From a virus, in IMG/VR virus record IMGVR_UViG_3300032020_000845, positions 42,980 through 106,979 of that record: DNA of 64,000 nt. One strand, given 5' to 3'. Shown one piece after another: positions 27,383-50,396 of this stretch (position 1 is its first letter; each line of letters begins with the position of its first letter). Position numbers and translations under genes: made by a program. The notes below the pieces were generated by a model. It had not been told where the DNA came from. It searched no databases and saw nothing but the letters and a program-made list of their open reading frames with translations.

Positions 27383-27444
27383 AGTCTATTTTGCTTTCAA
27401 TTTTTTTGTCAATCTCTATAATAGTAATAGAAGTAATGATTTAG

Positions 27445-27470: not shown

Positions 27471-27486
27471 TATTTTTGGAGGAAAG

Positions 27487-27621: not shown

Positions 27622-27647
27622 TTTTATTGAAATAACGGAGGTAAGAT

Positions 27648-30551
27648 ATGTCACTTAATAGTGTTCGAAAATTATGCGGTGGAGAGATTCCAAGTTTTAT
27701 GAAAAAAGCTTTAGTTACCTTAGCGTATAGAGAAAAAGTTACTTTTTTGAAAGAAAAAGGGGCTATGTTATTCACTGACAAGGGATTTACAAAAATCGGT
27801 TGGAATCTTTTTCGTAAAACGCAGGATCCTGACGCTGGGTCGATCTGGACTGTTACAGCTATTAAAAATGATAAAGGTGAAGAGGAAAAATGGCTCGTGG
27901 CTTATGTTGATGAAGATAATAATGTGTTGCGAAAAGTGAAAGCTTCTATAAAGAAAACTGCACAAGAAGAACCTTTGAGATTTAGGCCAAGCAAAACATA
28001 TTTTCTAACAAATGAAGATTTAGAAGAAATGGAAATAGAACCAAGAAAAGGAGTTAGATTTGAGACTGATAGACTTGAATTTATTTGGGGGACATATGAA
28101 TTAGTAAGACAGAGTATTTCTCAGGATGGGTGGTGGGTAAAAGAAGTAAAACTTGGTCCTCCTTATGGAGAAACAGAAAAAGGTGCTTCCACAAAAATCT
28201 CTCACACTCCAGGAACAATTGTTCAAATAACTGTTCCTCACGGAAACCTTTATGAAAAATATAATGGTAAAATAGGAGAAGTAGTTGCTGCAGTTCCAGA
28301 CCGTTCTAAAGTTAGTTTTAAAGATATGCCTCCTTTTTGGTTTGAAGATAATGTAATTAATCCAATTGTTCCTTGCCCTCTTTGTAATGCAAATGTTTCT
28401 TTACAAATGTTAAAAAAGGTTGGGAAAGTTAAGTGTAAATGTAATGCTTTTTATACTTGGAGACAATTAGAAAAGATTGCAAATAATGATAGAATAAATA
28501 AAGTTGCTGCTGAAAAAATAAAGAAAATTGCTGATACTACTACAATAGAGGAAATAGATTTAGGTGGAGGTAAAAAAATTACTGTCGATTATAATAATTT
28601 TGATAACATGTATAGAGCATTTCTTACAAATGAACAAGGAATAACTGAGTCTGCCGCTACTAGAAATACTAAAGATGAAATTTATGAATGGGTTGAAGAA
28701 AAGAAAACAGAACTTAAAAAAACCTCTACAAAAACCGCTCGAATTGAAGAAAGAAAAGGTGAATATTGTGTAATAGCAGAATCTGGTAGAAGTATGGGAT
28801 GTTACTCTACAAAACCAGAAGCTGAGAAAAGATTAGACCAAGTAGAAATGTTTAAACATATGAAAGGTAAGAAAGCTCAGTTAACTGAACAAGATCCTGA
28901 TTATATTCCTGGATGTCCAGCATGTGAAGAAGCTGTAAAATGTGGTCTCGATTTTGAAGAAACTCATTCAACAGGATTTCCTGGTTTTTTGCAATTAGAA
29001 GATCCAGATACAGGTAAAGAAAGACTTATTCCTAGTCCTCATTATACATATGAAGAAAGAAAAAGATTAAGAGGTAAGAAAGCATGGAAAGATTCTAAAG
29101 GGGAAGAGATCAGTGCTGGAGATTTTGTTCTTTACGCCAGAGATCAAGGATATGACATAGACGCAATAGTTAGGGCAATCAACCAGAGTGGGAATGCCAC
29201 ACTAGAGTTTGACGATGGGAGAGTTATCTATGATGTTCCTGTGACAGGACTGGTTAAATCAGGATCGAAGAAGAAAGCACAAGAGGAACATAAATTATCG
29301 ACGGAAGAAATTATGCAACTTTTAGAGAGTACTAATACAGGGGGTTATTTTTATGCAGATAATTGCCGAATAAATTATTCAAGTGTTTCTGGTTGGTATT
29401 GTAAAGATTTTATTGGTGGTGAAATGGATACTTATAATATTACGGAGGATGAAGCAAGAAGAAAAATAGAAGAAAGTCTAGGAGATGGGAAGTTTGCTTC
29501 TAAAACTGCTCAAAATGTTATTATGTGGTTTGATAGTCCAAATGTTTTAAAAAGTTTAAAGCATTTACAAGGACCTCCAACAAGTCCTGCTACAGAAAAG
29601 CCTTTTGAAAAACCTGAAGAAGAAGGTGATGAGGATGAATTAGAACCTGAAGAAGAGGTTGAAAAAGAAGCTTCGAGGAAAACTGTAGCGGATCCTTTTA
29701 CGAACAAAAGATTTAGAATAGTTAACTTAGATAAATTTAGTATGGGTGATTTTGATATAGAAGATGAAGAAGAATATGAAGAACTTTTAAGACATAATAA
29801 TAAATATGCTCTTGTTACAGGTATTGCTATTTTAGGGTGGACTTTAGAAGAATATTATGTTGATGTACGCTTTGATGACGATTATATAATAACAGGCTTA
29901 AGTGTGTATCATTTAGAAGGAATAAAAGAAGCATCAACAAAAACAGCTCAAACTAAATTTGAATTAGAAGAATTAGTAAAAAAATATCAAAAAGGTTTTC
30001 CAGATATTCCTGAAAGTGATATTAGGGTAGGTATAAAATATGTATTAAAACAACACCCAAACAAAAATCCTGAAGATTTAGATGCGGAAATTGATGGAGA
30101 ATTACAAGCTATCTATGAGGATTTTTATAAACCAAGATTAGCTTCAATAGAAATAGTTGGTAAAAAAATTGAAAGTATTGTAAAAGAAGCAGATGGAATG
30201 GAAAGTTTAAGGGGTGGAGGACAGGGAGGAGGTTCAAGTAAATTGGAACCAATGCAATGGAATGTGCAGGAATCAAAATATCCTCCTCTGCCTAAAGAAG
30301 AAGAAGAGGAAGGTAAAGAAGTTCCTGAAACGGAAGAAGTTGAAAAAATTATAGTAGAAATTGACCCGGAAAGTAAATCTGTTCACGTGAATTTTAAGGG
30401 AGAAAAAGAGGGAGAAAAAGAGGGAGAAGAAGAAGTAAAAACTAAAGAACCAACAGAAATTCCTAAAGGAGCTGAAGTTCCTCCTGAAACAAAAGAAAAA
30501 GAAACAGAAGAGGGAGAGGAAGTTACGCCGGAGTCGCCAGTCGTTTTTTGA
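27648..30551 (+). CDS. Modular polyprotein 1 (967 aa) with about 10 K-x-A linkers
   Basis: ASIKKTAQ, ASTKISH, IKKIAD, TSTKTAR, KGKKAQ, RGKKAW, SKKKAQ, ASKTAQ, KEASRKTVA, KEASTKTAQ separate short unrelated modules. Confidence 0.8.
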   Translation: MSLNSVRKLCGGEIPSFMKKALVTLAYREKVTFLKEKGAMLFTDKGFTKIGWNLFRKTQDPDAGSIWTVTAIKNDKGEEEKWLVAYVDEDNNVLRKVKASIKKTAQEEPLRFRPSKTYFLTNEDLEEMEIEPRKGVRFETDRLEFIWGTYELVRQSISQDGWWVKEVKLGPPYGETEKGASTKISHTPGTIVQITVPHGNLYEKYNGKIGEVVAAVPDRSKVSFKDMPPFWFEDNVINPIVPCPLCNANVSLQMLKKVGKVKCKCNAFYTWRQLEKIANNDRINKVAAEKIKKIADTTTIEEIDLGGGKKITVDYNNFDNMYRAFLTNEQGITESAATRNTKDEIYEWVEEKKTELKKTSTKTARIEERKGEYCVIAESGRSMGCYSTKPEAEKRLDQVEMFKHMKGKKAQLTEQDPDYIPGCPACEEAVKCGLDFEETHSTGFPGFLQLEDPDTGKERLIPSPHYTYEERKRLRGKKAWKDSKGEEISAGDFVLYARDQGYDIDAIVRAINQSGNATLEFDDGRVIYDVPVTGLVKSGSKKKAQEEHKLSTEEIMQLLESTNTGGYFYADNCRINYSSVSGWYCKDFIGGEMDTYNITEDEARRKIEESLGDGKFASKTAQNVIMWFDSPNVLKSLKHLQGPPTSPATEKPFEKPEEEGDEDELEPEEEVEKEASRKTVADPFTNKRFRIVNLDKFSMGDFDIEDEEEYEELLRHNNKYALVTGIAILGWTLEEYYVDVRFDDDYIITGLSVYHLEGIKEASTKTAQTKFELEELVKKYQKGFPDIPESDIRVGIKYVLKQHPNKNPEDLDAEIDGELQAIYEDFYKPRLASIEIVGKKIESIVKEADGMESLRGGGQGGGSSKLEPMQWNVQESKYPPLPKEEEEEGKEVPETEEVEKIIVEIDPESKSVHVNFKGEKEGEKEGEEEVKTKEPTEIPKGAEVPPETKEKETEEGEEVTPESPVVF

Positions 30552-30588
30552 AAATAATTAGAAAATAAAATTTAATTGGAGGTAAACA

Positions 30589-33500
30589 ATGTTAATTCCA
30601 AAAGAACCAGAAAAAAATAAAAAAACACACAAAAAGTGGTTTAAGGCAGAGAAGCTAAAAAAAGTTGCTAAGAAAGAATCGTTGCCTCAAGAAAAGGAAG
30701 ACTTAATAAGAAAACATGGACAATCAAATATGAAAGAAACTGTTCTTTCATACGCTTGCACAAATTGTAAACATTCCTTTAGTGCTAATAGTTTAAGAAA
30801 AGAAATTATTGAGTCTGCAAAAAAAGGAAGCACTCTTGTTTATTGCCCAAAATGTGGTCTATTTCTTGTTGCAGATCGTAAAACAAAGATTCCTTCTAAA
30901 CTTGGTTCAAAAATAAACAGGAACGCTGATCTAACTGCTATATATCCCAATCAAGGAATAGTTCCAGGCTATGTGCCTAATACTTGGGTTGATCGTGCTT
31001 TACTTGAAAAAATTTGTCACGAACTAGGAAAATATGCCGAATCAGTAGGTATGTTTAATCCTCAATTAAAATTTCAAAGAGGCATTCGAGGAAAAGTTCG
31101 TGAAGGTTCTCCTCAAAATGTGAAATACGCGGAGTATACAATAGAGTCTGTGGATAATTATGATGTTAGATTTCGTGTTATTGCTACTGCTGGAATTACT
31201 CCTATCGGAAAAGTAATAATTTCTAATGTGTTTAGAACCTTGGACGGTAGAGAAATATCGTTCACACAAGAAGGAGTTGAAGGTTTTGTATCAGGTAAAG
31301 TTTATGGTTCTCCAGACGTTAAACCTGTTGTTCCTCAAATTTATTACAAAGAGCGTGATCCTTCGAGGTTTAGAGAAATAGTTGCTTCAAAGAAAACCGC
31401 TTTTGTGAAAGGTATTGATGATATTCCTAATATGGAGTTTTCAGAAATGAAAAGAAAAGTTATGGAAAGGTTAAAACGAAAGTATCCAGAATTCAAAATT
31501 TCAGATCTTGATGCTTATTCAGATAATACTATTGACGGGATGAGAGATCATTGGACTGATTTTGGCAATCCTCGTATGACTGTTCAAGATTGGTTTGAAA
31601 ATGTTGTGGATACGATCGATGCTGATTTAGAGGAGGAGGCTAGTCAGTTTATTACTAGAAAAAAAACAGCAGCAGGTGTTCCTATTCCTGGTCAACAAAT
31701 TGAATATCAAGGAAAGATATATACAGTTGATACTGTTGTTGGAGATACTTCTATATTAAAAGATGAAACAGGATTACAAACAGCTCCGGTTCCTAATTTA
31801 GAGTTAAATATTCAACAAGGAGGTTCTGGTTTAGCAGCTCCTGCTGCTCCTATTACAGCTCCAGTTGCTAAAAAGATTGAAGAAATTGTTAAAAGAGGAT
31901 TAAGGGATGAAAAAACTTTAGTTCCATTTACTGAATCGGATCCTGATTATAGTGTTGCAAAACAAACTGATGTTGATCCAGATTTTAGTACTCCTTATGA
32001 GAAATCTGACCAAGGGATTCTTGAGGAAAAGGATAGAGCTGTTCAGCAAATGTTTAGAGGAGGAACTTCAGTAAGACCTACTAAATCTGCTGCAGAGATA
32101 AGATGGCAAAGAGTGAAGGATGAGTTTTATGATACAGTAGAACAAGATACTGGTCCTTGGGTTTTGAAAACCCTTTCTCTTGAATCATATGTGGATGTAC
32201 CAAAACATTGGCTAGATGCTTTGAGAAAAGATCCAGAAGGCCTTTCTCAAAATTTTGTTTCACATTGGGCTGAGAAACATAGTTATACGTTGCGAGACGA
32301 TGAAAAACGAGAACTTCAAAAATTATTTGTAGATTGGGTGTTTGAATTTGAGACTGAAAAAGAAGCTTCTCTAACCAAAACTGCTCCTGAAAAAGCTGAC
32401 CTTGAAAGTATGGTTCAAAAATGTATGAGAGACAAAGGATGGGAACATGCTAAGTGTATGAATTATGTTGCTGGAGGTGTTTGGCATAGAAAAGGGAAAG
32501 TAGATGGACTACATCCCGGAATGCATGGCCACACAAAAGATGGCTATAAATTTGTTATTCTTGATGTTCAGGGAAATGAAATTCAAGTTGACCAAGAAAA
32601 TATAAGTGGTTCTTTTTGGACTGACCGAAATGAATGGGAAGGAAAAGAAAGTCCTCAATATGTTGAAAAATCATTGGAACCAGGAATGTATGGAAATACA
32701 AAAGATGGTTATAAATTTGTTATTCTTGATGTTGAAGGAGATACAATTCAAGTTGACCAAGAAAATATAAGTGGTTCTTTTTGGATTGGTAGAAACGAGT
32801 GGGAGAAAAAAGAAGCTCCTCACTATCTCCAATATGTTGGAAAACCATTGGAGGAGGAAGAGGGAGAAAAGGAAGCTTCAATAAAGAAAATAGCTGAACC
32901 AACAGGTTATCACGAAACGGATGAAACAGGAAAACAAATTGAACTTTCTCGTTTAAGAACACTTGTTGAGGATTATTATAGAGCAGGACAATTTCCCCCA
33001 GATTTTGATTATACTAAAGTAATGTCAGAGGTTTCTCGAATGACAAGAAAACAACTATTAGATATTCTTGACAAAAAACTTAAAGATACTCATTATCCTG
33101 TTGTTCATGCGAAGAAGAAAACAGCTGTTAGAACAAATATGTTATGTGTTGATAGTGAAGGAGAAAAGATTCAGTTTAAAAAATTGGAAGATGTTTTTAA
33201 TGATTTAGATGATAGATTTTTATCAAATATATACGATGAATTGGAGTGGCTTCCTTTGGATTCGAGAAAACTTAAAGAGGTATTAAAACTACTTGGATAT
33301 TCTCGTATTACTAATAATGATATACAACAGTTATTACAATGGATAAAAGAAGAATCTCCAGAATGGTTTATGACTCTTGAAGAATATAAAAAAGTAGCGG
33401 AAGGATTTATTCAAGAAAGTCTGAAAAAAGTTGCTTCAACAAAAACAGCAGCTACAGTAGATGAGATTAATGAGATTCTTCAAAAAAACTATGGAATAAC

Positions 33501-34770
33501 TTTTTCTATATATAGTAGAAGGATGAAATCCCTTCTAGACAGAATCCTCAAAGATAAAGGTTTTCCAATAGAAGAGTCGATAGATTCTTGGATGAAAGAA
33601 ACTGATGGAGGAAAGCTAATTGTTGGATCAAAAGGTAAATCATCTAACCAAATAGTTCAAGAAATTCGAAAAGCAGATCTTACTGAAAAGGATATTAAAA
33701 AACAAATTAAAGATGAAGAAGAAGGCGAAGAAACTTATAATGAAATGGCAACGGAAGTTGTATGTCCAAAAGCAGAAAAAGCTTTAGAAGATATGGCTGA
33801 TGATGAAGCGGCTCACGCAGAAAAGTTAGAGGAAATTGTTTTACCTGCTGTTGAAGAAGAAGAAGAGGATACTGAGAAAGAAGCTTCAATAAAAACAGCA
33901 GTTGAGTATGATAGTTGGGATAGTGAGGAATTAGATAATGGATGGACAGTTATTGGTGATCAAAGAAGTGATGATTCTGACTATAAACTTGTACGAGTTA
34001 GGGATACGGAAACTGCAAGTCATTATAAAACTCTTGCTAAAGGGTATAATGTTCTAGATTTTGAAGAGTATGTAGAAGAAGTTAAAAAGTGGCCTCCACC
34101 TTCATTTACAAAAAAGAAAACAGCTCAAGAAGAAGTAGAAGAAGAAAAACCAAAAACAGAATATAAAGAATTAAAAACAAAACCACACAAACCAGAGTTG
34201 GAAGTAGAAGAAGAAGCTATTGTTGCAACTCCAGAAATGCAAAAAACTTTTCACGAAATACAGAACCATAAGCAAAGGTTGACAGAAATTAAAGCTCTTA
34301 TAGAGGAATCTCGACGTAAGGTGGAAGAGGAAATTCGTAAAATTCAGGAGGAACACGGAGCGATTAAGGAAGCGTCAGATGTGCAGGAGGGGATCGAAAA
34401 GTTAGCTGCTCTTGTTGAACAAGCTGAAACTCAAATAGTTGACCTTGGAGAATTTTTTGCACATTTAGATACATCTATAAAGGAGAAAAAATTTAAGCCT
34501 TCAGATGCGTGGAGAGTCCAAAAGTTATTGGAAAAATTTGGAAAGGAGGCGGAAACTTATTTAGATAAGGCTGAAAAGGGATCTAATTCTTTAAATACTG
34601 AAGTGAAACAACGTATTCTTACAGTATTTCCAAAACGTGAAGGATCTATTGAAAAGGAAGCTACTGTTTTTGATGCTATAAGAGAACTTGGAGAAAATCT
34701 TTGGTCATATGTTAAGTCTTTAAGTGAAATTTCAGCAGAAGGAGAACAATTGGAATTAGTTCTGGAATAA
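30589..34770 (+). CDS. Modular polyprotein 2 (1393 aa) with about 11 K-x-A linkers
   Basis: VASKKTA, RKKTAA, TKSAA, KEASLTKTA, KEASIKKIA, AKKKTA, VASTKTA, IRKAD, KEASIKTA, KKKTAQ, SIEKEA; N-terminal Zn ribbon, half-ferritin module, C-terminal coiled coil. Confidence 0.8.
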   Translation: MLIPKEPEKNKKTHKKWFKAEKLKKVAKKESLPQEKEDLIRKHGQSNMKETVLSYACTNCKHSFSANSLRKEIIESAKKGSTLVYCPKCGLFLVADRKTKIPSKLGSKINRNADLTAIYPNQGIVPGYVPNTWVDRALLEKICHELGKYAESVGMFNPQLKFQRGIRGKVREGSPQNVKYAEYTIESVDNYDVRFRVIATAGITPIGKVIISNVFRTLDGREISFTQEGVEGFVSGKVYGSPDVKPVVPQIYYKERDPSRFREIVASKKTAFVKGIDDIPNMEFSEMKRKVMERLKRKYPEFKISDLDAYSDNTIDGMRDHWTDFGNPRMTVQDWFENVVDTIDADLEEEASQFITRKKTAAGVPIPGQQIEYQGKIYTVDTVVGDTSILKDETGLQTAPVPNLELNIQQGGSGLAAPAAPITAPVAKKIEEIVKRGLRDEKTLVPFTESDPDYSVAKQTDVDPDFSTPYEKSDQGILEEKDRAVQQMFRGGTSVRPTKSAAEIRWQRVKDEFYDTVEQDTGPWVLKTLSLESYVDVPKHWLDALRKDPEGLSQNFVSHWAEKHSYTLRDDEKRELQKLFVDWVFEFETEKEASLTKTAPEKADLESMVQKCMRDKGWEHAKCMNYVAGGVWHRKGKVDGLHPGMHGHTKDGYKFVILDVQGNEIQVDQENISGSFWTDRNEWEGKESPQYVEKSLEPGMYGNTKDGYKFVILDVEGDTIQVDQENISGSFWIGRNEWEKKEAPHYLQYVGKPLEEEEGEKEASIKKIAEPTGYHETDETGKQIELSRLRTLVEDYYRAGQFPPDFDYTKVMSEVSRMTRKQLLDILDKKLKDTHYPVVHAKKKTAVRTNMLCVDSEGEKIQFKKLEDVFNDLDDRFLSNIYDELEWLPLDSRKLKEVLKLLGYSRITNNDIQQLLQWIKEESPEWFMTLEEYKKVAEGFIQESLKKVASTKTAATVDEINEILQKNYGITFSIYSRRMKSLLDRILKDKGFPIEESIDSWMKETDGGKLIVGSKGKSSNQIVQEIRKADLTEKDIKKQIKDEEEGEETYNEMATEVVCPKAEKALEDMADDEAAHAEKLEEIVLPAVEEEEEDTEKEASIKTAVEYDSWDSEELDNGWTVIGDQRSDDSDYKLVRVRDTETASHYKTLAKGYNVLDFEEYVEEVKKWPPPSFTKKKTAQEEVEEEKPKTEYKELKTKPHKPELEVEEEAIVATPEMQKTFHEIQNHKQRLTEIKALIEESRRKVEEEIRKIQEEHGAIKEASDVQEGIEKLAALVEQAETQIVDLGEFFAHLDTSIKEKKFKPSDAWRVQKLLEKFGKEAETYLDKAEKGSNSLNTEVKQRILTVFPKREGSIEKEATVFDAIRELGENLWSYVKSLSEISAEGEQLELVLE
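32509..32847 (+). repeat. Tandem duplication of a 55-aa (165-nt) module
   Basis: L-x-PGM-x-G-x-TKDGYKFVILDV-x-G-x2-IQVDQENISGSFW-x2-RNEWE-x-KE-x-P twice, with high DNA identity. Confidence 0.9.
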
Positions 34771-34785
34771 ATAAGAGGAAAAATT

Positions 34786-34932
34786 ATGAAATGTCCAAAG
34801 TGTAATGTAGAACTACAGCAATGTAAAAATGGAATTGTGGTAGGATCTTTAAAAGATGGTATAAAAATATCTCTTTGGGAATGCCTCAAGTGTGGTTATT
34901 TAAAGACCTTAAAAGAGAAGGTTAAGTTTTAA
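34786..34932 (+). CDS. 48-aa zinc-ribbon protein
   Basis: MKCPKC...WECLKCGY; SD GAGG. Confidence 0.55.
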   Translation: MKCPKCNVELQQCKNGIVVGSLKDGIKISLWECLKCGYLKTLKEKVKF

Positions 34933-34948
34933 TAACTTAGGAGACTAA

Positions 34949-35725: not shown

Positions 35726-35736
35726 AAGAGGAAAAA

Positions 35737-35967
35737 ATGGCTTTAATTATACCTCAAGGTAGAAATAAAGGATTGAGAAAAGAAGCGGTTATTATTGTCA
35801 CTTCATTAGAAGATCCTTTTAATTATGTTAAAATGAACGGCAAAACACCTCATTATTTTATGGAAGATCCTAAGGATACAGAAGTTCTTTATGTGAGTAC
35901 AGAACCTTTTACATTATCTCAAGCGCGAAAAGCATATGAGGTAGAGTTTGGTGAAATTGGCGAATAA
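35737..35967 (+). CDS. Hypothetical protein
   Basis: SD GAGG; tightly packed before terL; contains GLRKEA near the N-terminus. Confidence 0.55.
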   Translation: MALIIPQGRNKGLRKEAVIIVTSLEDPFNYVKMNGKTPHYFMEDPKDTEVLYVSTEPFTLSQARKAYEVEFGEIGE

Positions 35968-35970
35968 AGT

Positions 35971-38973: not shown

Positions 38974-38991
38974 AAATTGGAGAAATTATAA

Positions 38992-39405: not shown

Positions 39406-39437
39406 AAAAAACCTTTTAACGAAGTAAGGAGGAAGTC

Positions 39438-40334: not shown

Positions 40335-40338
40335 ATAA

Positions 40339-43300
40339 ATGATAAAATTAGGTAGTGAACCGAATTGGGTTTTTGCAGATCTTGATTTGATTTCTGAATT
40401 ACTGGTTGAAAATAATATTCCTATTGAACATCCAAATTACGAAAAATACAAAGATTATATATTAGGCAAGTTTGAAGGAACGTGGTTTGTTTCTCCAGAG
40501 GAAATGGAAAAGGCAGTTCTTCAATATATTCCAAAAACAGCTTCTTTAAATTTTCGAAAAACAGCTGAACCTGAAACCCTTCAAGAAAATTTCTACGAAC
40601 CAGGAAAGTCCGATGAATATCCAAAAGGACCTAAAAAACCTCGCTTACGCTTTCCATTTTATAATTATCCAGATGATCAAGGAAATATAATTAACATAAA
40701 ACCTGATATTTCTAATCCAATGGAATATGATACAACTCCAGGACCTCATCCTCAAGGACCTGGAATATGTGGAAGTTTAAGTATGAAAAAGAGAGCACAA
40801 TCTAAAGGTCTTCTTACCTATAAAAAGCTTACGGATATTATGATGGTAGTGAAAGATCTTCAGCAGGTTGACTCTTTAGACTCTGACGAGGTTGAAGACC
40901 TTGCTGAAAATCTATATAATATTTTTGGAAATGATATATTGTCGGGAGCAATCTTAGCGGCGCATGAAGATAAAGCTTCTAGGTTTATACAAATGATAGG
41001 AGAGTATTTAGCTTTATCAACGAAAATAGGGTTGAAACCTTTAACTAAAGAGCTTTTAGAGAGTTTGATTAAGGTTTGCCAAGATCCAAGTAACCCAAAA
41101 CATCAGATAAAGAAAGTTCCTTTGGAAGATGTTTTTGAACCTAAGAAAGAAGAAGATGAATTTGAGGAAACTGAAGAAGAGATAGGTGAAAGATGGAAAG
41201 AAAAAGAAAAACAGATTCTACCTGAAAAAAAAGAACTCTCTCCAGAAACAATGGAAGTTCCCTATACCTTTCTACGAGACAAATACACTGAAGATGAAAT
41301 ATGGGATATAGCTAGAGGTAGAAAAACTGATGTATCTCCAGAAGAAATAGAAATGGCTAAATTTGTAATTGAGAGAGGTATTGTAGCCGGTAGATTGGGA
41401 ATGAGAAAAACTTCAACAACTGTTTCTGAACCAACTCCTGATGAATCATTACATGAACAACAAGGAGAACATCCAGGGCATACTTATTTTCAAGGAAGAG
41501 ATGAATGGGAAGATAAAGAACCTGATCAGGGGTTTGATATATTATTTCCAGAGAAGGTAAGAATAAAAAGGGATCCTTGGCTTTTTGAAGATAATCCAGT
41601 ATCTGAAATGACTGCAAGTAGATTAAATATGAGAAAGAAAGCTTATATTAATTTAGATAATTTAAAAAGATTATATGAAGGACAATTAAAACATCTTGGA
41701 GTTTATGATAGAGAATTAATGGAAGAAGTTAGAACAGATTTATTAGTAAATTTAGAGAATTTGATAAAAAGTACATTTAAAAAGTATAAAGGTTGGGAAG
41801 AAGAAGATATTCCAGCGGATCTTGAAGTTATTCAAGAATATGTTGATGGTTTAAAACAATCGCTAAAAAAAGATTCAGATTTAATGGTAATGATTGATTC
41901 GACAGTGAATGTTATACATCATTTTTTTGAGGATCATGGAGAACATTATTTGCTTTCTGAGATAGTTAATCCTAGACAAATTGAAAGGGCAGAAGAATTA
42001 CTTGCTACTATTTTTTCGCAAGTTAGTGAAAAATTGGAAGAAAAAGAAGAAAAACCAAAACCTTCCATACCTAAAAAAGTTCCTTTTGTTGATAAACGAG
42101 GTAATCCTCTTAAAATAAATGATATTGTATTTGCAAAAGATGAAGGATATTTTGGTAAATATGGAAGAATTGTATCCGTTGATCCTGAACCAATATATCT
42201 TTCTGATTTAGAAAAGTGGACTTATTCTATGTATGTAGAAACTACAGTAACAGAAGAAATGTTGGCAACTGAAGTAGTGTTAAGTAATGATATTGATAAG
42301 GATTCTATTGCGGTTGAGGCTACTAATCATATTCTTCAATTGGTAAAGAAAAAAGCATTTGATGTGAACAGTGCTTTTGATGTAATATTAGATGAATTGT
42401 ATATTGTTCTTGATCAAGAAATGATTCAGAAAATTAAAAATAATTTATATGATGAAGGGATAGATATAGAAAAAGAAGCTAAAAAATTATTGAGTGTAAG
42501 AAAAAATAATTCAACTTTTCAATTAAGTATACGAAAGAAAGCAATTATTTCTCCATTGCAACTAAAAAAGTTGTATGAATTAGAATTGTTATATAGAAAA
42601 GGAAATTTTGGTATTGAAGAGCAACTCGACAAATTATCAGAATATATAGTAAAAGAATTAATAGAGTTTTTAAATGATTGGTTACAATTTTATATTGCTG
42701 AGGAAGGACTAAATGAAGAAGCAAAAGCAGCAACAAATAGATTAGAATCTTGTAAACAAGAACTCGAGAATGCTTTTGATATCGATTCAAAAATAGTTGC
42801 AATAGATACTACTATAAATACAATGCATGTTGATTATGATGTCTTTGAACATTTAATTATGACATTTGAAGAATATGCAGAAAGGGAATTTAGATCAAAT
42901 AGAAAAGAGATACAAAAACACTATCAAGTATGGGATTCTTTGAAGACTTTTCTTCAGGAACAGGGTAAACTTACTGAAAGAATTTTTGAAAATAGATTAA
43001 ATATGAGAAAAATAGCTCTTGATCCTTTAACTCAAAGAGAATTATTACAAACTGGAATATTATTTCCATCTCCGGAATTTATAGAAAAAATGAACCTAAA
43101 AAAGGAAAAAGATAAAGAAGAACAAAAAGATAAATATAGAAGTTTTCAAAAACCTTTTGAACTAAAACATGAAAAAGGTTTAAAAGAAACTATACGAAAG
43201 AATATTGAGGAACAATTTATTATACCTCAACAACTAAAACTTCGATTTGACAAATTTGCGCAGGAATCCCCTAGAACCTTGGGGCCTCAAATAACAAAAC

Positions 43301-44778
43301 AAAAAATAAGAAGATTATATGAACAAGAAGCTAAAGGTATTTATGATGAAGAATTACTGGATGAAATTATTTCAGGATTTTTAGTAACTTTAGAAAGTTG
43401 GGTTAATTTTGAAGAATACAAAATAAAGTATCTTTTGCAATATGTAACTGATGATAGTTATGATCTAATTAGAGAAGCAGAAGATTTAATTCAACCTTTA
43501 CACTCAGCAACAACTCCACAAGAGAAAATGATTGCAATAGATACTGTAATAAATATTGTTCATCAAACGGGAAAATATGGAGAGTATTTGATAAAAGGAA
43601 TAGACCCTGGAGATTTATCCTTTTTTGATGACCTAAGTAATTTGAAAGTTAGTAGTTTAAGTTTAAAAAGAATTGCTCAAATTACAGAAGTTAACATTGG
43701 AGATGAAGTAGAATTTGACACTACTCGTTATTTTCGAGTTGGTAGAAGTAAACAAGGAGGAGTTTTAAAAGGTAAAGGAATTGTTAGAACGAAGAATGAG
43801 GATGGTTCATATGATATTGAGATAACAGAAATAACTAATGCTCATATAGATATTGCTCATATATTTAAACCTGGGCGTACTACTCCCTTTTTGGTAGATG
43901 AAATAAAAGCATTTGTAAAACCAAAATTTGAGCCTAAAAAAGAAATTCCAACTCCTGTCGAGGAGCCTAAAATTGAAAAACCTAAAGAAGTAAAAGTTGA
44001 ACCAGAGAAAGTTCCTGTTGAAAAGCCTATTATTTTTGAGTTAGCAGAACCAGAAGAAGAAGAAATTCCAATACCTGTTGAAGAGTTTGGAGAACCTGAA
44101 CCAAAAAAACTAAAGAAAAAATTTCCAACTTGGAAAGAATTGGGGCAAATTGTTTGGGAGTCTTTTAAAAGACCTGTGACAAGACCTTTTGGTAGTATAT
44201 TAAATATGAGAAAAGCTAATAAAATATCAGGCCGAAAACTCCTGTCTGTAGGCTTATGGGCTATTTATAATGGAGAGATATATAGTAAATTAGAAGATGT
44301 GAATAAATACGAGGGACATGAAAATTGGTTTGTAGAATTAGGTTTACCTGTGAAAGGAACAGAATACGATTATATTACTCGTGGTATTTATAGACCAGAT
44401 AGAATAGTATGGTATGAAGGTACTGGAACTTTTGAAGAATTTTCTGATAATATTGAAGAGTTAAGAAAAAAGTTAGAATTACCGGAGAATGTTAAAATTG
44501 AATCTGCCCCGGGTTTCTCAGAAATAAAAAAAGCTGAATTAGATATGAGAAAATCAGATATACAAAAAGATGTTCCTATTGAAAGTGCTTCTCCTATATT
44601 TAAACCTGAAGATACAATTAAGAATAAATCAATGGAAGAAGCTACATACAAAGTAATGGAATATGATCCAAAGGTTGATGAATATTTAATTGTTGGTGGT
44701 GTTAAAGATAGAATAATAAGAGTAGATCGAAAAACATTGGAAAATATTTGTGACTTAGTTGAGGGGGAGGGGAAATGA
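40339..44778 (+). CDS. Modular polyprotein 3 (1479 aa) with about 11 L-x-M-R-K-x-A linkers
   Basis: SLNFRKTA, SLSMKKRA, RLGMRKTS, RLNMRKKA, LVKKKA, QLSIRKKA, RLNMRKIA, LRFDKFA, SLSLKRIA, ILNMRKA, ELDMRKS. Confidence 0.82.
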   Translation: MIKLGSEPNWVFADLDLISELLVENNIPIEHPNYEKYKDYILGKFEGTWFVSPEEMEKAVLQYIPKTASLNFRKTAEPETLQENFYEPGKSDEYPKGPKKPRLRFPFYNYPDDQGNIINIKPDISNPMEYDTTPGPHPQGPGICGSLSMKKRAQSKGLLTYKKLTDIMMVVKDLQQVDSLDSDEVEDLAENLYNIFGNDILSGAILAAHEDKASRFIQMIGEYLALSTKIGLKPLTKELLESLIKVCQDPSNPKHQIKKVPLEDVFEPKKEEDEFEETEEEIGERWKEKEKQILPEKKELSPETMEVPYTFLRDKYTEDEIWDIARGRKTDVSPEEIEMAKFVIERGIVAGRLGMRKTSTTVSEPTPDESLHEQQGEHPGHTYFQGRDEWEDKEPDQGFDILFPEKVRIKRDPWLFEDNPVSEMTASRLNMRKKAYINLDNLKRLYEGQLKHLGVYDRELMEEVRTDLLVNLENLIKSTFKKYKGWEEEDIPADLEVIQEYVDGLKQSLKKDSDLMVMIDSTVNVIHHFFEDHGEHYLLSEIVNPRQIERAEELLATIFSQVSEKLEEKEEKPKPSIPKKVPFVDKRGNPLKINDIVFAKDEGYFGKYGRIVSVDPEPIYLSDLEKWTYSMYVETTVTEEMLATEVVLSNDIDKDSIAVEATNHILQLVKKKAFDVNSAFDVILDELYIVLDQEMIQKIKNNLYDEGIDIEKEAKKLLSVRKNNSTFQLSIRKKAIISPLQLKKLYELELLYRKGNFGIEEQLDKLSEYIVKELIEFLNDWLQFYIAEEGLNEEAKAATNRLESCKQELENAFDIDSKIVAIDTTINTMHVDYDVFEHLIMTFEEYAEREFRSNRKEIQKHYQVWDSLKTFLQEQGKLTERIFENRLNMRKIALDPLTQRELLQTGILFPSPEFIEKMNLKKEKDKEEQKDKYRSFQKPFELKHEKGLKETIRKNIEEQFIIPQQLKLRFDKFAQESPRTLGPQITKQKIRRLYEQEAKGIYDEELLDEIISGFLVTLESWVNFEEYKIKYLLQYVTDDSYDLIREAEDLIQPLHSATTPQEKMIAIDTVINIVHQTGKYGEYLIKGIDPGDLSFFDDLSNLKVSSLSLKRIAQITEVNIGDEVEFDTTRYFRVGRSKQGGVLKGKGIVRTKNEDGSYDIEITEITNAHIDIAHIFKPGRTTPFLVDEIKAFVKPKFEPKKEIPTPVEEPKIEKPKEVKVEPEKVPVEKPIIFELAEPEEEEIPIPVEEFGEPEPKKLKKKFPTWKELGQIVWESFKRPVTRPFGSILNMRKANKISGRKLLSVGLWAIYNGEIYSKLEDVNKYEGHENWFVELGLPVKGTEYDYITRGIYRPDRIVWYEGTGTFEEFSDNIEELRKKLELPENVKIESAPGFSEIKKAELDMRKSDIQKDVPIESASPIFKPEDTIKNKSMEEATYKVMEYDPKVDEYLIVGGVKDRIIRVDRKTLENICDLVEGEGK

Positions 44779-47700
44779 CTTTATTTATGAGAAAGAAAGC
44801 AGGGATTGAAACTCATGAATATAGATTTAAACAATTTCACAACCATAAAATTCCAGCATATACTTTTATTGGATATCAAGAAATTCCTTCTGGTGGGAAA
44901 ATGTTGATGTTTAATTGTAATATTTGTGAGAGTACCTTAATGTTATTTCCAGAAGAAGTTAAAGCTAATATAGATAGAATTTCTGGTTTGCTAGATGATT
45001 GGGAACAAGTTGTTAGTAACATAAAAAAGGCTAATGAATTTACATCCATAGAAAAAGAATTTGTATTAAAATTTGTAAAAGAATTTGAAAGGATGAATGA
45101 CGCTAAAGAAATTTATGAGGAATTAGTTAGTGATACATTTATGTTTGAACTGACAAATCATTTGGAAGAGGATTTAGGCATTTCAAAAGAGGATAGCAAT
45201 GATTTTGCTCTTGCTATTTATAATCGATTATATTCGGATTATCGTGTATTTACAGAAGTTCCTTTTCAAAGTGTTGGAAGTTTAAGGTTTGAGAATATAA
45301 AGAAAAATATAGATAAAGTAAAAATTTCCACAAAATATAGAGGTCCTGTTGTATCAATTTTAGAAAGTATTGCTCCGGCAGTTTGGAGTGCTTCTGGTTT
45401 AAAAGAGGCAAAAGATATAATTATAAGTACAGTTTCAGGTTCTCATATTGATGAAGATGATAAACAAAAGATTTTAAATAATGTTGATAAAATTAACAAT
45501 TTATTAGAATTGCAAAAGTATATTGCAAACTCAATTTTGTTTTATGAAGGAATGGGGACAAAGTTAAGTATGCGAAAGAGATCTCAAATAGATAAACAAC
45601 TATTTTTTGACTTTTATGGAGTATCTTTACTGTCAGATAATTACTTAGAACAAAATCCTTACGCAAAACAATATAGAAATATGATTGTACAAAGTATAAA
45701 AGATGTTTATGTTCCTCTGATTACTAAAATGGTTTATAGTGAACTTAGAAAACATACTGATCGCATGTATAATTGGGAGGATTGGATAGAAGAATTTAAT
45801 CTTAAAAATGTCAATAGTCTTACTTTAGAACAACTAGCTCAAATATATAATGAAGGAGTCTGGGTAACAGAATATGGTGGTCCCTCTTGGGGGTCTATTG
45901 TTGAATCTCTAATTCAACTTAAAAATACTTCTGATACTAATCAACTCATAACTGTTATAGATCATATCAATGATATTGAACACAATACTGGTTTAATGTT
46001 TCACGATTTTCCGAAAGTCAAAAAGTGGTTTTCTGATGCTTTAGAAACTAAAGCTCAAGCAACTCCTGAACAACTTATACCTTATCTTTCTTCTGATTTA
46101 CAAAAATTAGTTATAGAAGATTTAAGATTAAAAGGAAAAGAAATTATATCTCCCGAAAAATATATTACAAGAGATGAAAAATTTGAACTTGCCCAAAATC
46201 CATCAACTCCTCCAGAAATCTTAGCTGAATTAGCAAAAGATAAAGATGAATTTGTTCGTATAAATGTTGCAGGAAATCCAGAAACACCTCCAGAAATCTT
46301 AGTAGAATTAGCGAAAGATATAGATAAGTATGTTCGTATACGGGTGGCTTATAATCCCAATACCCCTCCCGAATCATTAGTGGAATTAGCTAAAGATGAA
46401 GATGAAGAGGTTCGTTTGTATATTAAAAGAAATCCTTCTACTCCTCCTGAAACTTTAGCAGAATTATCAAAAAATACATTAGAGTGGGAGCGTCCTGAAA
46501 TAAAAGAAGAAGAAAGCTTTAACTTAAGTATGAGAAAAACATCAATTTCGGACCAAGAAATTATTAACAATACTATTTTCTATTTCACAAAAGAAAGAAT
46601 AGATTTACCGAAAACTGAAACATATATTTATGATTATCTTCTAAATCAACATCCAGAATTAAGTTCTTGGGAAATAGAAAGACTTACACAAAAAGTATTA
46701 AATATTTTACCCAAACCAGTTTTAACAAAAGTTCATAAAACAGCAAAAGTGTTTACTATGGGAACTCCAGATACTTTTGAATCTGGGTGGGCAATATATC
46801 AAGGAAACATTTATATAAATTATGGTAGGGAGGAACACCATTCTCAATGGTTTGAAAAATTTGGTCTTCCTACTTCAGGAAAGGCTTTTGACGAGTTAGT
46901 TCGAGGGTATTCTGAAGGCGGAAGAATTGTTTGGTATGGAACTGGAGATTATAATGAGTTTGCAGATTATTTACCAGAATTAGTAAATGCTTTAGGAATA
47001 TCAGATCCTACTATACAAATGATTGATTATACAACACAAGAATTTAAAACTTTAGCAATGAAAAAGGAAACATCTATCCTCGATTACCCACATAAATATT
47101 TAGATTCTGAAATATGGGATTTGTCAACTGATCCTCCAAAACTAAAAAAAGATATTAAAAGTTTTATTATGAATCGTTTTATTGATTACTTGGTAAAAGA
47201 AGGATTAAATAGTCCAGAATTGTGGTGTAAGGAATTTTACTATACAGGGTCAACTGCTACACATCAATATCAAAAATCTTCTGATATAGATATTCATATA
47301 AGAGTCGATTGGGAAGCATATAAAAAAACTAATCTAGATAAAGCAAAAGAAGATGCTGAAGAAATGCGTAAAGATTTGTTAAAAGTGTTTTGGAATACTT
47401 TAAACAAAGAATATCTACCTGGAACTTCACACCTTCTTACATATTATATATTGTCTGAATGGGAAGATGTAATGACACAAACGGAAGAAGCATATGATAT
47501 ACAAAAAGATGTTTGGATTGTTCCTCCTCAAAAAATACCTGAAACATATGACACAGAACAAAAAATAGATTTACTACAAGAACAAGCAAACTACATTATG
47601 GAAAAATTAGATGTGGAATTAGGTAAAACAAAAAGAGATTTTGTTGACTATAAGGTTTTAAAAGAGCTATTAGGTTCTTACGAAGGAAACAAAGCAGATA

Positions 47701-50396
47701 TTCAAAGATTAGTAGAAGAAAAGTTAAAGAAAGTTGAACAAGATTTAAAACAATTACAAGAAGAGAATATAAAAATTCATGAAGAAAGGAACAAGGCTTT
47801 TTATGACGGTCAAGAACCGATTGAAGAAGGATTAAGTAAAAACTGGACTCCGGGAAATATTATTTTTAAGTTAATTGAGAGATACAAATATATAGACATA
47901 TTGAGAAAAATTAAGCAAATAATTAAGGATGAAAAAATTACTGGGGAGGAAGAAAAAGAATTAGAAGATATTTTGGAACCGAAATTAAGTGCTGAATTAT
48001 CAACACTTTGGGCAATTTATAATGGTACTATTTATATTGGGAAACAACTTGGGCTTCTAACACATTCAACTTGGTTTGAAGAAATAGGTCTTCCAAGTAG
48101 TGGTTATGAATTTGATAAAGCTGCTCGCGGTTATTATCTTCCTGATCCAAATATTATTTATTGTTATGAAAATATTGAATCTTGGAATGAATTAATTGAT
48201 AATTTACCTAAATTAGTAGAAAAATTGCAAGCAGATTTAAATACTTTAAAAATTTATTTTGCTAAAGAAAATGATATTCCAAGAGTACTTAAATACAAAG
48301 ACCTTTTTGTAAATGCTTCAAAATTAAGTATGAAGAAAGCTAAAATTTTTCCAGGAGGTTTATGGGCTATTTATAATGGAAAGATATATACTACTGACGA
48401 AGAAGATGAGCATGATAAATGGTTCGAAGATATAGGGTTGCCTTCATATGGTGAAGAATATGATAGTATTACTCGGGGTGATTATGATTCAACAGGGATA
48501 TTATGGAATTTTGATACTGGTACTTTTGAAGAATTTTCAGATAATCTTCCGAAATTATTAAAAATATTGGGGTTACCTAGTACCACTAATGTTATGGTTC
48601 CAAAATTAAGTATGAGAAAAGAGACTTCAGTTCCAAATCTAATTCTTGAACAATTAGATTATCCTCATTCTTGGCCTCAAAAAAAGAGAGACGATAAAAA
48701 GGAGAAAGATGAATCTATTGGTTTTGGTATATTTCAAGGGGACTATGATGAACTTTATGATGTTCTTGATTCTATTAGGGAAGAAATTGCAAACAACTTA
48801 TGTATGAGAAAGACAGCACAAGATATTTCTGATCCTAATAAATTATCAATACAAGAACTTAAACAATTCTATGAATTAGAATTACAAGGATTACTTACTA
48901 ATGAATTTGTGGATAATGTTCTTACTAAACTAATTTATGGACTGCAAATAGAAAAAGAAAGAGTATCAAAAGATCCTGAAATTACGGGATATGTAAAAAA
49001 AGATTTTATAGCAATAGCGGATTTTTATATTAATGAGTTAGAAAAGGTTGCTACAAAAAGTTTAAACAAAAAAATTATTGAAATTGATCAAACAATACAA
49101 GCATTACACTTATCTTATGGGTTTGGAGTATTTCAAGGCGATCCAGATGAAATTTGGGAAACCCTTGATTTTATTGGAGAAACAGTTTGGACTAAATCTA
49201 AACCTTTAGAGTCAAATATTAGTTTGAATATGAAAAAGACAGCTGATCTTTCTGCTGCTCCTGCAATTTCTGATATGGAAGTTCCTGAAAATTGGGGAGT
49301 GCAAGATAAAACAAATATAAAATTAAGACGAAAGAATCCTCCGAGACATGACAAGAATGATTCAATTGTGGAACAGAATATAGTTGATCCTCATATTGAT
49401 ATGGCTTCATTAAATATGAGAAAGAAAATAGGTCAGGAAAAGGAAGAAGGAATTCTGCCAAAACCTCAAGTTACAAAACAAGACTTAATAAAATTATATA
49501 CTCAAGAAGCAAAAGGTATTTACGACGAAGAACTAATGAATGAAGTTATTTCAAAATTTATACAAACTTTAGAAGAATGTGAAGAATTTTGGGGTGCTTG
49601 GATGCAAAAATTCGGAAAGACTTTAATTTTAACATTACTACAAGCAAGAACTCCTCAAGAAAAAATGATTGCAATAGATAGAGTAATAAGTACCGTTCAT
49701 GTCGATGGTGTATTTGGAGAATATTTAATAATAGATGTAATTGGTGATAATTCCTTTTTTGATGAATTGCATAATTTAAAAATTAGTTCTTTGAATTTTA
49801 GAAAAAAAGCAAAAGAAACTAATCTTGACAAAATTGACGAATATCTTTTTGAATTACTTGATGAAGTAAGTGATGGAACAGGTAAAGAAGAAATTACAAT
49901 TGACGGAGAAACTTACTTAATTCATTATGAAGGATGGAGTTCAGGATGTTTTCCTGAAAATTTGCCAGAAAAAGAATGGGAAGATTATGCTGCTGAACAA
50001 TCAAACAAAGTTATTGACGAGTGGAAAGAAGAAGAAAAAAATAGATGGGACATAATTCCAGAATTGTCTGGGTACATTAGTGGAGGATTATATGGAAGGA
50101 CATATACAGTTTTTCATTTGAAAAATAAAAAAGCAAATGTATTTTATAATAGAGAGAAAAAGGGATTTGAAGGACAACCAACAGACAAAAATTATTACAG
50201 CCCTTCTTTACTTTTACGAGAAGATTATGGAACTCCTGGACTTCCTTCAGAACCGGCAAAAGCAGAAGTAGCTGATTTAGGAGAAGACCAATGGGGAGAA
50301 AGTAATAAACTAAAGAAGAAAAAACTTAAAGAGTTAGAATTTCCAGATTTTAATATTCCTTACGGAGTGGAAGGTGGCGACATAAAACAAATTTAG
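44775..50396 (+). CDS. Modular polyprotein 4 (1873 aa) with about 13 linkers; includes LRV repeats and a Pol-beta-like nucleotidyltransferase module
   Basis: LFMRKKA, IKKA, LSMRKRS, LSMRKTS, VHKTA, LAMKKETS, LSMKKA, LSMRKETS, LCMRKTA, LNMKKTA, LNMRKKIG, LNFRKKA, KNKKA; GSTAT...SDIDIH. Confidence 0.82.
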   Translation: MTLFMRKKAGIETHEYRFKQFHNHKIPAYTFIGYQEIPSGGKMLMFNCNICESTLMLFPEEVKANIDRISGLLDDWEQVVSNIKKANEFTSIEKEFVLKFVKEFERMNDAKEIYEELVSDTFMFELTNHLEEDLGISKEDSNDFALAIYNRLYSDYRVFTEVPFQSVGSLRFENIKKNIDKVKISTKYRGPVVSILESIAPAVWSASGLKEAKDIIISTVSGSHIDEDDKQKILNNVDKINNLLELQKYIANSILFYEGMGTKLSMRKRSQIDKQLFFDFYGVSLLSDNYLEQNPYAKQYRNMIVQSIKDVYVPLITKMVYSELRKHTDRMYNWEDWIEEFNLKNVNSLTLEQLAQIYNEGVWVTEYGGPSWGSIVESLIQLKNTSDTNQLITVIDHINDIEHNTGLMFHDFPKVKKWFSDALETKAQATPEQLIPYLSSDLQKLVIEDLRLKGKEIISPEKYITRDEKFELAQNPSTPPEILAELAKDKDEFVRINVAGNPETPPEILVELAKDIDKYVRIRVAYNPNTPPESLVELAKDEDEEVRLYIKRNPSTPPETLAELSKNTLEWERPEIKEEESFNLSMRKTSISDQEIINNTIFYFTKERIDLPKTETYIYDYLLNQHPELSSWEIERLTQKVLNILPKPVLTKVHKTAKVFTMGTPDTFESGWAIYQGNIYINYGREEHHSQWFEKFGLPTSGKAFDELVRGYSEGGRIVWYGTGDYNEFADYLPELVNALGISDPTIQMIDYTTQEFKTLAMKKETSILDYPHKYLDSEIWDLSTDPPKLKKDIKSFIMNRFIDYLVKEGLNSPELWCKEFYYTGSTATHQYQKSSDIDIHIRVDWEAYKKTNLDKAKEDAEEMRKDLLKVFWNTLNKEYLPGTSHLLTYYILSEWEDVMTQTEEAYDIQKDVWIVPPQKIPETYDTEQKIDLLQEQANYIMEKLDVELGKTKRDFVDYKVLKELLGSYEGNKADIQRLVEEKLKKVEQDLKQLQEENIKIHEERNKAFYDGQEPIEEGLSKNWTPGNIIFKLIERYKYIDILRKIKQIIKDEKITGEEEKELEDILEPKLSAELSTLWAIYNGTIYIGKQLGLLTHSTWFEEIGLPSSGYEFDKAARGYYLPDPNIIYCYENIESWNELIDNLPKLVEKLQADLNTLKIYFAKENDIPRVLKYKDLFVNASKLSMKKAKIFPGGLWAIYNGKIYTTDEEDEHDKWFEDIGLPSYGEEYDSITRGDYDSTGILWNFDTGTFEEFSDNLPKLLKILGLPSTTNVMVPKLSMRKETSVPNLILEQLDYPHSWPQKKRDDKKEKDESIGFGIFQGDYDELYDVLDSIREEIANNLCMRKTAQDISDPNKLSIQELKQFYELELQGLLTNEFVDNVLTKLIYGLQIEKERVSKDPEITGYVKKDFIAIADFYINELEKVATKSLNKKIIEIDQTIQALHLSYGFGVFQGDPDEIWETLDFIGETVWTKSKPLESNISLNMKKTADLSAAPAISDMEVPENWGVQDKTNIKLRRKNPPRHDKNDSIVEQNIVDPHIDMASLNMRKKIGQEKEEGILPKPQVTKQDLIKLYTQEAKGIYDEELMNEVISKFIQTLEECEEFWGAWMQKFGKTLILTLLQARTPQEKMIAIDRVISTVHVDGVFGEYLIIDVIGDNSFFDELHNLKISSLNFRKKAKETNLDKIDEYLFELLDEVSDGTGKEEITIDGETYLIHYEGWSSGCFPENLPEKEWEDYAAEQSNKVIDEWKEEEKNRWDIIPELSGYISGGLYGRTYTVFHLKNKKANVFYNREKKGFEGQPTDKNYYSPSLLLREDYGTPGLPSEPAKAEVADLGEDQWGESNKLKKKKLKELEFPDFNIPYGVEGGDIKQI
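46186..46475 (+). repeat. Four 24-aa leucine-rich-variant (LRV/HEAT-like) repeats
   Basis: NP-x-TPPE-x-L-x-EL-[AS]-K at a 24-aa period. Confidence 0.88.

Follow-up and report, generated by a model that had tools for sequence, protein, structure and literature searches.

Linker-punctuated polyproteins flanking the terminase gene of an uncultured phage: candidate substrates of a head-maturation protease

Introduction

The prohead proteases T4 gp21 and phiKZ/SPN3US gp245 recognize a single short motif, at which they cut the scaffold, the major capsid protein (MCP), the portal and the internal or ejection proteins (PMC10052503). Giant mosaic multi-domain proteins, the polyvalent proteins of mobile elements, are thought to travel with the DNA, to undergo strong shuffling between relatives and to be processed by proteolysis (Iyer, Burroughs, Anand, de Souza, Aravind 2017, PMC5512222). 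The present work concerns four giant open reading frames (ORF), polyproteins A, B, C and D, placed on both sides of the large terminase (TerL) gene of an uncultured phage. They lie in the last 64 kb (positions 42,980 to 106,979, referred to as the window) of a 106,979-bp viral contig (G000; IMG/VR record IMGVR_UViG_3300032020_000845), and every gene is on the plus strand. The four proteins are chains of small modules bordered by a recurrent basic linker. The same peptide core is found in head-assembly proteins of the relatives, and the chains are probably, though far from certainly, packaged in the head and cut at the linkers by the prohead protease.

The processing by T4 gp21 (IPI-III, Alt, gp67 and gp68), phiKZ gp175 and SPN3US gp245 is similar in that it employs, as predicted here, one protease of the gp21/assemblin fold and one short motif for the scaffold, the MCP, the portal and the internal proteins. 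In both cases the substrate genes are beside head or packaging genes, and propeptides can be cut several times (PMC10052503). On the other hand, the T4, phiKZ and SPN3US substrates are single proteins that lose a propeptide, with 14 sites in nine proteins in SPN3US (PMC10052503), whereas here 38 predicted sites in four proteins would yield about 40 unrelated modules. The motif is also different. It is basic, ends in Ala or Ser (K-[KT]-A) and covers 8-9 residues, whereas the T4/phiKZ type is L/I-x-E or A-x-E.

Polyproteins A-D share with the polyvalent proteins the giant mosaic architecture: 41 modules, with Pfam matches to NTP_transf_2, Rubrerythrin and LRV and with an order that is scrambled in relatives. 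The processing of polyvalent proteins is ascribed to an embedded zincin-like MPTase, and their hallmark domains are MPTase, ArdC-N, DdrB-ParB and lysozyme (PMC5512222). None of these (MPTase, ArdC-N, DdrB-like ParB or lysozyme) is detected in A-D by Pfam or PHROG at E <= 0.01, and a ParB-like stretch is found, by eye, only in the relative CD1. The word 'linker' has 0 occurrences in the article on polyvalent proteins (PMC5512222), so no recurrent linker motif is described there. The picorna-like 3C and flavivirus NS3 polyproteins are comparable in having a long ORF whose units are split by a repeated short site, with a trypsin-fold protease gene nearby. In contrast to them, the present genome is that of a double-stranded DNA (dsDNA) tailed phage, the protease is encoded separately from the polyprotein, and the modules are accessory and shuffled instead of forming a fixed replication set.

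The closest cultured relative of the capsid protein is Bacillus phage G (40% identity over 82% of the query). Its head module comprises the gp14 portal, the gp19 protease, gp20/gp21 and the gp27 MCP, and gp19 shares protease motifs by eye. The proteins gp19, gp20 and gp21 each contain K-T-A or K-K-A (five in 948 aa versus 0.9 expected). However, in phage G the protease stands alone as a protein of 300 aa, whereas the one studied here is fused to a scaffold of more than 1000 aa, and the annotated phage G MCP is without the N-terminal extension seen in the MCP of this group. The 29 kb surrounding the head genes of phage G show no linker polyproteins, and a tblastn search with polyprotein D finds no homologue in phage G and, across the entire phage collection, only three weak local matches. 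Judged from sequence, the system appears to work like the T4/phiKZ/SPN3US head-protein processing and resembles the polyvalent proteins; it would differ in scale and logic, as modules are released, in its universal linker and in the absence of the hallmark domains. The literature searched contains no description of linker-punctuated polyproteins in phages.

Results

The linker peptide

The conserved linker unit is a basic peptide of 8-9 residues that ends in K-[K/T]-A/S, and it occurs in two dialects. Polyproteins A and B use (K-E)-A-S-x-K-(K)-T-A, whereas C and D use [S/K/R]-L-[S/N]-M-R-K-[K/T]-[A/S]-Q, as given by a logo of 74 sites from the window and its relatives, including eight proteins from other contigs. 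A strict definition yields 38 linkers, which divide the four proteins into 41 modules. These range from 42 to 416 aa, with a median of 101 aa. The modules are 40-150 aa long in 27 cases and net acidic in 37.

An earlier note on this DNA, made from the sequence alone, described four ORF flanking the terminase, built of mostly 45-150-aa, often acidic modules separated by about 45 short basic linkers of the form K-[TKIRE]-[AS]. The ORF coordinates and lengths are exact (Table 1), TerL does lie between the two pairs, and the size and acidity of the modules are borne out. The recurrent linkers are real, but their strict count is 38 and not about 45. Likewise, the proposed three-residue unit is enriched, but the conserved unit is longer and its two dialects had not been separated.

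The loose motif K-[TKIRE]-[AS] occurs 57 times in the four ORF versus 22.9 +/- 4.5 in within-protein shuffles, with a density of 10.0 per thousand residues in A-D versus 3.4 in the rest of the contig. The contrast is sharper for longer patterns: the C/D expression has 19 matches versus 0.5 in shuffles, and the 5-mer [MF][RK]K[TKRI][AS] is found 15 times in the four ORF and 0.2 times in shuffles. The remainder of the contig, 29,261 aa, has no match of the 5-mer; the earlier note had remarked that the extended motif is not evident in the other large proteins.

The linker codons vary synonymously (AGA/CGA, AAA/AAG, GCT/GCA, TTA/TTG and AGT/TCT/TCA), the first three pairs having already been pointed out, while the peptide is kept, and selection therefore acts on the peptide. 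The possibility that the Met of the linker provides internal translation starts is rejected because this Met is replaced by Phe, Leu or Ile in many sites and is absent from the A/B dialect. A separate feature of the C/D linkers (40543-49811) concerns the Lys that comes after the Arg/Lys of the M-R-K core: AAG is its codon at 10 of 20 sites, compared with a 19% share of AAG among all Lys codons of the four ORF. This preference may avoid long A-runs prone to ribosome or polymerase slippage.

Linkers are the borders of modules

The linkers are module borders, as indicated by four lines of evidence. Of the ends of the BLAST blocks between the window proteins and their relatives, 46% are no more than 12 aa away from a linker, versus 16% for random positions. 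Free-standing homologues of two modules, designated 'WAIY' (P0026 and P0032, 98-100 aa) and 'IAID' (P0033 and P0034, 122-164 aa), contain no linkers, and their ends coincide with the expected linker positions. Genes are split at linkers: polyprotein D begins within one (M-T-LFMRKKA) at the C|D boundary, and in one metagenome contig (L052) an ORF ends with ...SLNLRQKA and the next one starts with M-K-LNMK. Finally, the AlphaFold2 model of one 'IAID' module with its flanks (18-row alignment) has a core with a predicted local distance difference test (pLDDT) score of 88-97, while both linkers have values of about 50-65 and are outside the core. A single module with flanks was folded, and not a multi-module stretch, since MAFFT did not correctly align the module families of a 526-aa chunk and its paralogues.

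Modules recur between the ORF, as had been claimed: 'WAIY' and 'IAID' are present in both C and D, and one module is common to A and B. The nucleotidyltransferase, half-ferritin and LRV folds that had been recognized earlier are confirmed by Pfam (NTP_transf_2, a Rubrerythrin half and LRV), whereas the SH3/KOW and zinc-ribbon modules have no Pfam support in A-D. Most modules match no known family. In A-D PHROGs recognize nothing useful, the 'IAID' fold has no significant Foldseek match in the PDB, and 'WAIY' has no match in the protein atlas search.

Relatives and module shuffling

Searches with TerL, the protease, the MCP and an 'IAID' alignment recovered relatives, whereas the search with polyprotein C alone recovered none. 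The relatives are the contig G001 (73 kb, TerL 77% identical), the contig G002 (168 kb, about 90% complete), further metagenome contigs and four giant database proteins, one of which is labelled by NCBI as coming from a Candidatus Cloacimonetes metagenome-assembled genome. The family is rare, as a search with 526 aa of D yields only 30 proteins among 1.84 billion representatives.

Every recovered relative carries the same linkers. In relatives, C and D correspond to a single ORF (2431 and 3263 aa). The order and content of the modules are scrambled, and only an N-terminal module of about 70 aa and a C-terminal module of about 80 aa keep their place; the N-terminal 68-aa module of C is kept at the N-terminus in all C/D-type relatives. 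Several ORF of the relatives start with M-K-K-L-N-M-R-K. P0021 and P0024 have linker dialects of the form L-S-[LF]-K-K-[FQ]-S-Q. G002 encodes an 1185-aa linker polyprotein directly after the portal gene and before the protease/scaffold genes (reverse-complement 149389-152946; L032 15322-18879, minus strand). This polyprotein contains LRV repeats and a sigma-70-like module between two linkers, and the next gene encodes a separate sigma factor. An additional 518-aa linker protein is found among the tail genes of G002.

As every module has the same junction, the relatives are able to gain, lose, copy and rearrange modules, and a linker can even serve as the point at which a gene is split. The idea of an expandable cassette library, advanced in the earlier note, is thus supported by the scrambled order, by the presence or absence of individual modules and by the gene splits at linkers.

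The linker core in the head proteins

In G002, a 1444-aa protein with an N-terminal protease domain is encoded upstream of the MCP (phrog_18299, E 1e-10). The AlphaFold2 model of the protease domain (pLDDT 81.5) has T4 gp21 (5jbl_A) as its best match in a wide VIA-align search, with Z 9.2 and a root-mean-square deviation of 2.7 A over 127 residues. The herpesvirus proteases of varicella-zoster virus, human cytomegalovirus and Kaposi's sarcoma-associated herpesvirus come next (Z 5.3-6.9), and Foldseek against the PDB gives only weak rows for herpes proteases and gp21. His106 and Ser186 are invariant in 41 homologues, and so is a zinc ribbon. By its predicted model, the domain is a Ser-His enzyme of the gp21/assemblin (clan SH) fold, fused to a scaffold. 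Herpes assemblins have a gp21-like fold and cut after Ala, P1 Ala being the rule, and a scissile bond after the Ala is predicted for the linkers as well. Sequence searches against solved structures give no match for this protease or for the trypsin-like protease discussed below.

The scaffold part of the G002 protein has 11 K[KT]A versus 2.0 expected (z 6.5); no other large protein apart from the polyproteins shows such an enrichment. In four orthologues (38-71% identity), several of these sites are kept in place while the neighboring residues differ. The N-termini of the MCP contain PPGF-RKEA-P, PPGF-SKKA-P and PPGF-QKTA-P, that is, a conserved PPGF-x-K-[K/T/E]-A-P. The portal carries F-IRKKA-Q, and a small protein adjoining the protease gene carries a full linker. 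The head-module proteins thus account for four of the 10 non-polyprotein matches of the 5-mer, although only about 7% of those residues are theirs.

The head genes of the phage itself are probably on a second record. One end of the 38,082-bp IMG/VR contig G004 is identical, over 126 nt, to nt 6-131 of G000, and joining the two restores a 470-aa baseplate ORF across the junction, with the gene order of G002. The overlap and the restored ORF therefore indicate a phage of at least 145 kb, of which the two records are pieces; about 25 kb, with the portal region, are absent from both. G004 encodes a 182-aa protein, a 1418-aa protease/scaffold, in which residues ~50-305 form the protease domain, and a capsid protein whose gene is interrupted by an ORF-bearing insert. 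A position-specific scoring matrix (PSSM) was trained on the linkers of the relatives only and applied to the joined 145 kb. It matches 19 sites in the polyproteins (A, C and D), whereas shuffles give 1.35 weak matches. Elsewhere there is a single strong site, KLSMRKKAL (21.1 bits); it belongs to the 182-aa protein, whose gene immediately precedes the 1418-aa protease/scaffold gene. The motif, which the earlier note had suggested looking for at capsid and scaffold junctions, is thus found in the relatives and in the probable upstream continuation of the contig, where it marks predicted maturation sites.

The insert in the MCP gene of G004 (L045 8302-10137) is a separate observation. A first exon (MAFKAKASSYPPGFRKEAP...GAQI) is followed by the insert, which contains a 218-aa ORF, and then by the remainder of the gene. 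The insert looks like an intron with a homing-endonuclease-type ORF.

Discussion

Proposed cutting by the head protease

The chains A-D are probably cut by the capsid-maturation protease because the same peptide marks head-assembly proteins. The claim that the linkers are plausible protease sites is supported by the K-[KT]-A core in the scaffold, the MCP and the portal of the relatives. The polyproteins would be made late and incorporated into the procapsid. Subsequently, the prohead protease would cut the linkers and leave roughly 40 small proteins in the head as cargo. The released modules would be injected with the DNA or would form an internal body. A predicted complex of the G002 protease domain with a 38-aa linker peptide of C has a median ipSAE of 0.10 (mark 0.32) and speaks neither for nor against the proposal.

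Several observations weigh against this proposal. The head module is outside the window and is known from the relatives and from the contig joined through the 126-nt overlap and the ORF continuity. The scaffold, the MCP and the portal have the short K-[KT]-A core only, and the full nine-residue linker is present in one head-module protein only, so the conserved upstream half (S-L-N-M-R or E-A-S-x-K) needs another explanation; it may add affinity or have a targeting role. Many ORF of the relatives begin with a linker (M-K-K-LNMRK) and end just past one, where a cut site is not obviously useful. The phage's own scaffold has only four strict K[KT]A versus 1.7 expected. The polyprotein genes flank TerL among DNA-metabolism genes and are not in the head operon. 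Lastly, there is a second candidate enzyme, overlooked in the earlier note: a trypsin-like protease whose gene is 1.7 kb downstream of D.

Cutting at the linkers, if it occurs, would be an expression and packaging strategy not known for tailed dsDNA phages, in which dozens of accessory proteins are made, delivered to the capsid and released via a single protease code. It would account for many of the 'giant hypothetical proteins' in large uncultured phages. The borders of the modules would be readable from the sequence, which would give a rule for cutting testable units, and there would be signs of a reservoir of proteins of about 100 aa and of unknown fold, possibly active at the first moments of infection. 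A broader and more tentative idea, judged possible rather than probable, is that phages with phage G-type heads may use a cassette polyprotein system, in which modules bounded by the cut site of the head protease are cargo for injection and are freely swapped. The injected cargo would then include regulators, such as the sigma-factor-like module of the relative and the nucleotidyltransferase of the window, and the universal junction would allow free swapping of the modules and a fast-evolving injected arsenal.

Other readings of the linkers

An unlikely alternative is that the linkers of A-D are processed by the trypsin-like (S1) serine protease encoded downstream of D, either in the cytoplasm or once co-injected, with cleavage after the Lys/Arg of the M-R-K-K core rather than after the Ala. 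The enzyme has an intact triad (H53/D112/S186), and the core of the linker is dibasic. The gene is kept (59-71% identity) downstream of a C/D-type polyprotein and an exonuclease gene in three related contigs (G001, G002 and L050), so that, with G000, it accompanies a linker polyprotein in four contigs. The contig of a distant homologue (L022) has an S1 protease gene after genes for tail and internal virion proteins. In another contig (L015 9854-11896), the catalytic GN|SGG motif of a 50%-identical homologue is the exact insertion point of an intein, which suggests that the enzyme is conserved and important. On the other hand, 15 other viral contigs with S1 homologues (34-50% identity) have no linker polyprotein in flanks of up to 10 kb, several of these contigs being only 4-8 kb long, and a contig with polyprotein and exonuclease (L049) has no S1 gene in the next 3.5 kb. 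In the contigs compared, the coupling of S1 to the linkers is thus weak, unlike that in the picorna-like and flavivirus systems. The residue six before the catalytic Ser, at the position of chymotrypsin Asp189, is Gln here and Pro in a relative instead of Asp, although this is a weak argument for this subfamily. More generally, cutting by S1 leaves the enrichment and conservation of K-[KT]-A in the scaffold, the MCP and the portal unexplained. No homologue of the S1 protease is found among 50,697 phage records.

Still more doubtful is that A-D stay uncut as giant beads-on-a-string polyvalent proteins, with the linker as a functional spacer. It could be, for example, an element for docking, or for translocation that takes the small domains through the tail channel one at a time, or a patch that binds DNA or the capsid. 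Giant uncut virion proteins are known, as the N4 vRNAP is packaged unprocessed (PMC5512222). The linkers at the extreme ends of ORF fit a peptide that acts on each module better than a mere cut site, and AlphaFold gives the linkers a weak helical propensity. However, the core motif at conserved positions in the protease-scaffold, a protein of the self-processing type, and at the N-terminus of the MCP is the classical signature of maturation sites. In addition, genes are split at linkers without loss and modules also exist as free-standing genes elsewhere, and covalent linkage is therefore not required.

A reading in which the linker serves chiefly to recombine cassettes at the DNA level, with an unselected peptide, is very improbable. 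The scrambled module order and the breakpoints at linkers would allow it. However, synonymous codon changes are found at almost all linker positions while the peptide is kept, the two dialects and the distant relatives preserve the peptide pattern and not the nucleotides, and long identical nucleotide tracts at the junctions are absent.

Gene layout and neighboring genes

Polyproteins A and B are upstream of TerL, C and D downstream (Table 1). The four take together about 17 kb of coding DNA. The polyprotein share of the recovered sequence is 12-16%, with 17 kb in the 107-kb contig and 21 kb in the 168 kb of G002.

Table 1. Polyproteins, linkers, modules and associated genes, with positions counted from the first nucleotide of the window.
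Feature	Position	Strand	Remarks
Polyprotein A	27648..30551	+	967 aa; A/B-dialect linkers; 10 modules; net charge -47
A linkers 1-5	ASIKKTA 27942-27962; ASTKIS 28185-28202; TKTA 28728-28739; GKKA 28866-28877; GKKA 29073-29084	+	
A linkers 6-9	KKKA 29268-29279; ASKTA 29496-29510; ASRKTV 29670-29687; ASTKTA 29931-29948	+	
Polyprotein B	30589..34770	+	1393 aa; A/B-dialect linkers; 9 modules
B linkers 1-4	ASKKTA 31384-31401; KKTA 31660-31671; ASLTKTA 32365-32385; ASIKKIA 32875-32895	+	
B linkers 5-8	KKTA 33115-33126; ASTKTA 33433-33450; ASIKTA 33883-33900; KKTA 34114-34125	+	
Rubrerythrin-like half in B	33700-33894	+	Residues 1038-1102; Pfam
Large terminase (TerL), LAGLIDADG intein inside	35971..38973	+	1000 aa; Pfam
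Polyprotein C	40339..44778	+	1479 aa; C/D-dialect linkers; 11 modules
C linkers 1-5	SLNFRKTA 40543-40566; SLSMKKRA 40774-40797; RLGMRKTS 41392-41415; RLNMRKKA 41620-41643; KKKA 42346-42357	+	
C linkers 6-10	QLSIRKKA.. 42520-42576; RLNMRKIA 42994-43017; SLSLKRIA 43654-43677; ILNMRKAN 44197-44220; ELDMRKSD 44536-44559	+	
Polyprotein D	44775..50396	+	1873 aa; overlaps C stop by ATGA
D linkers 1-4	TLFMRKKA 44778-44801; KLSMRKRS 45561-45584; NLSMRKTS 46521-46544; HKTA 46734-46745	+	
D linkers 5-8	TLAMKKET 47049-47072; KLSMKKAK 48321-48344; KLSMRKET 48603-48626; NLCMRKTA 48795-48818	+	
D linkers 9-11	SLNMKKTA 49221-49244; SLNMRKKI 49407-49430; SLNFRKKA 49788-49811	+	
LRV/HEAT-like repeats in D	46182..46409	+	Pfam
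Nucleotidyltransferase (NTP_transf_2) core in D	47226..47375	+	Within 416-aa module; Pfam
'WAIY' module of D	48345..48602	+	D 1191-1276
'WAIY' paralogues	C 1295-1400 (44221-44538); D 658-758 (46746-47048); D ~1070-1162	+	
'IAID' helical module of D, folded core	49467..49754	+	Residues ~1565-1660; AlphaFold2
Trypsin-like (S1, Trypsin_2) serine protease	52110..53018	+	E 7e-13

The intein of TerL is recognized by Pfam (Intein_splicing 483-841, LAGLIDADG_3 685-771). The TerL of G001 (637 aa, 77% identical) is without intein, and that of G002 is a 1078-aa form. Between polyprotein B and the terminase genes, G001 has genes for a PrkA-like AAA kinase and for YeaH/DUF444-like and SpoVR-like proteins, assigned by eye (L001 3720-8280); there are none at the corresponding place in the window.

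Directly upstream of A, a small unlisted ORF (27440-27647) encodes a double C-x2-C zinc ribbon (..CEKCGKKVSTLYDGNDGKKVCAQC..). The sequence GGGAAAAAAGTTT, considered as a promoter shared by A and the 182-aa head gene, was dropped because both copies before A are in this small zinc-ribbon ORF, where they code for G-K-K-V. Another promoter-like sequence, the extended -10-like motif TTTGTGTATAATATAT, is present at about nine intergenic sites (5163, 12091, 62200 and 62709 in the window, and others upstream of it) and precedes none of the polyprotein genes.

The S1 protease gene is followed by an MgtC-family gene (53038-53469, E 2e-34) and then by a thymidylate-synthase-like gene (53587-54186).

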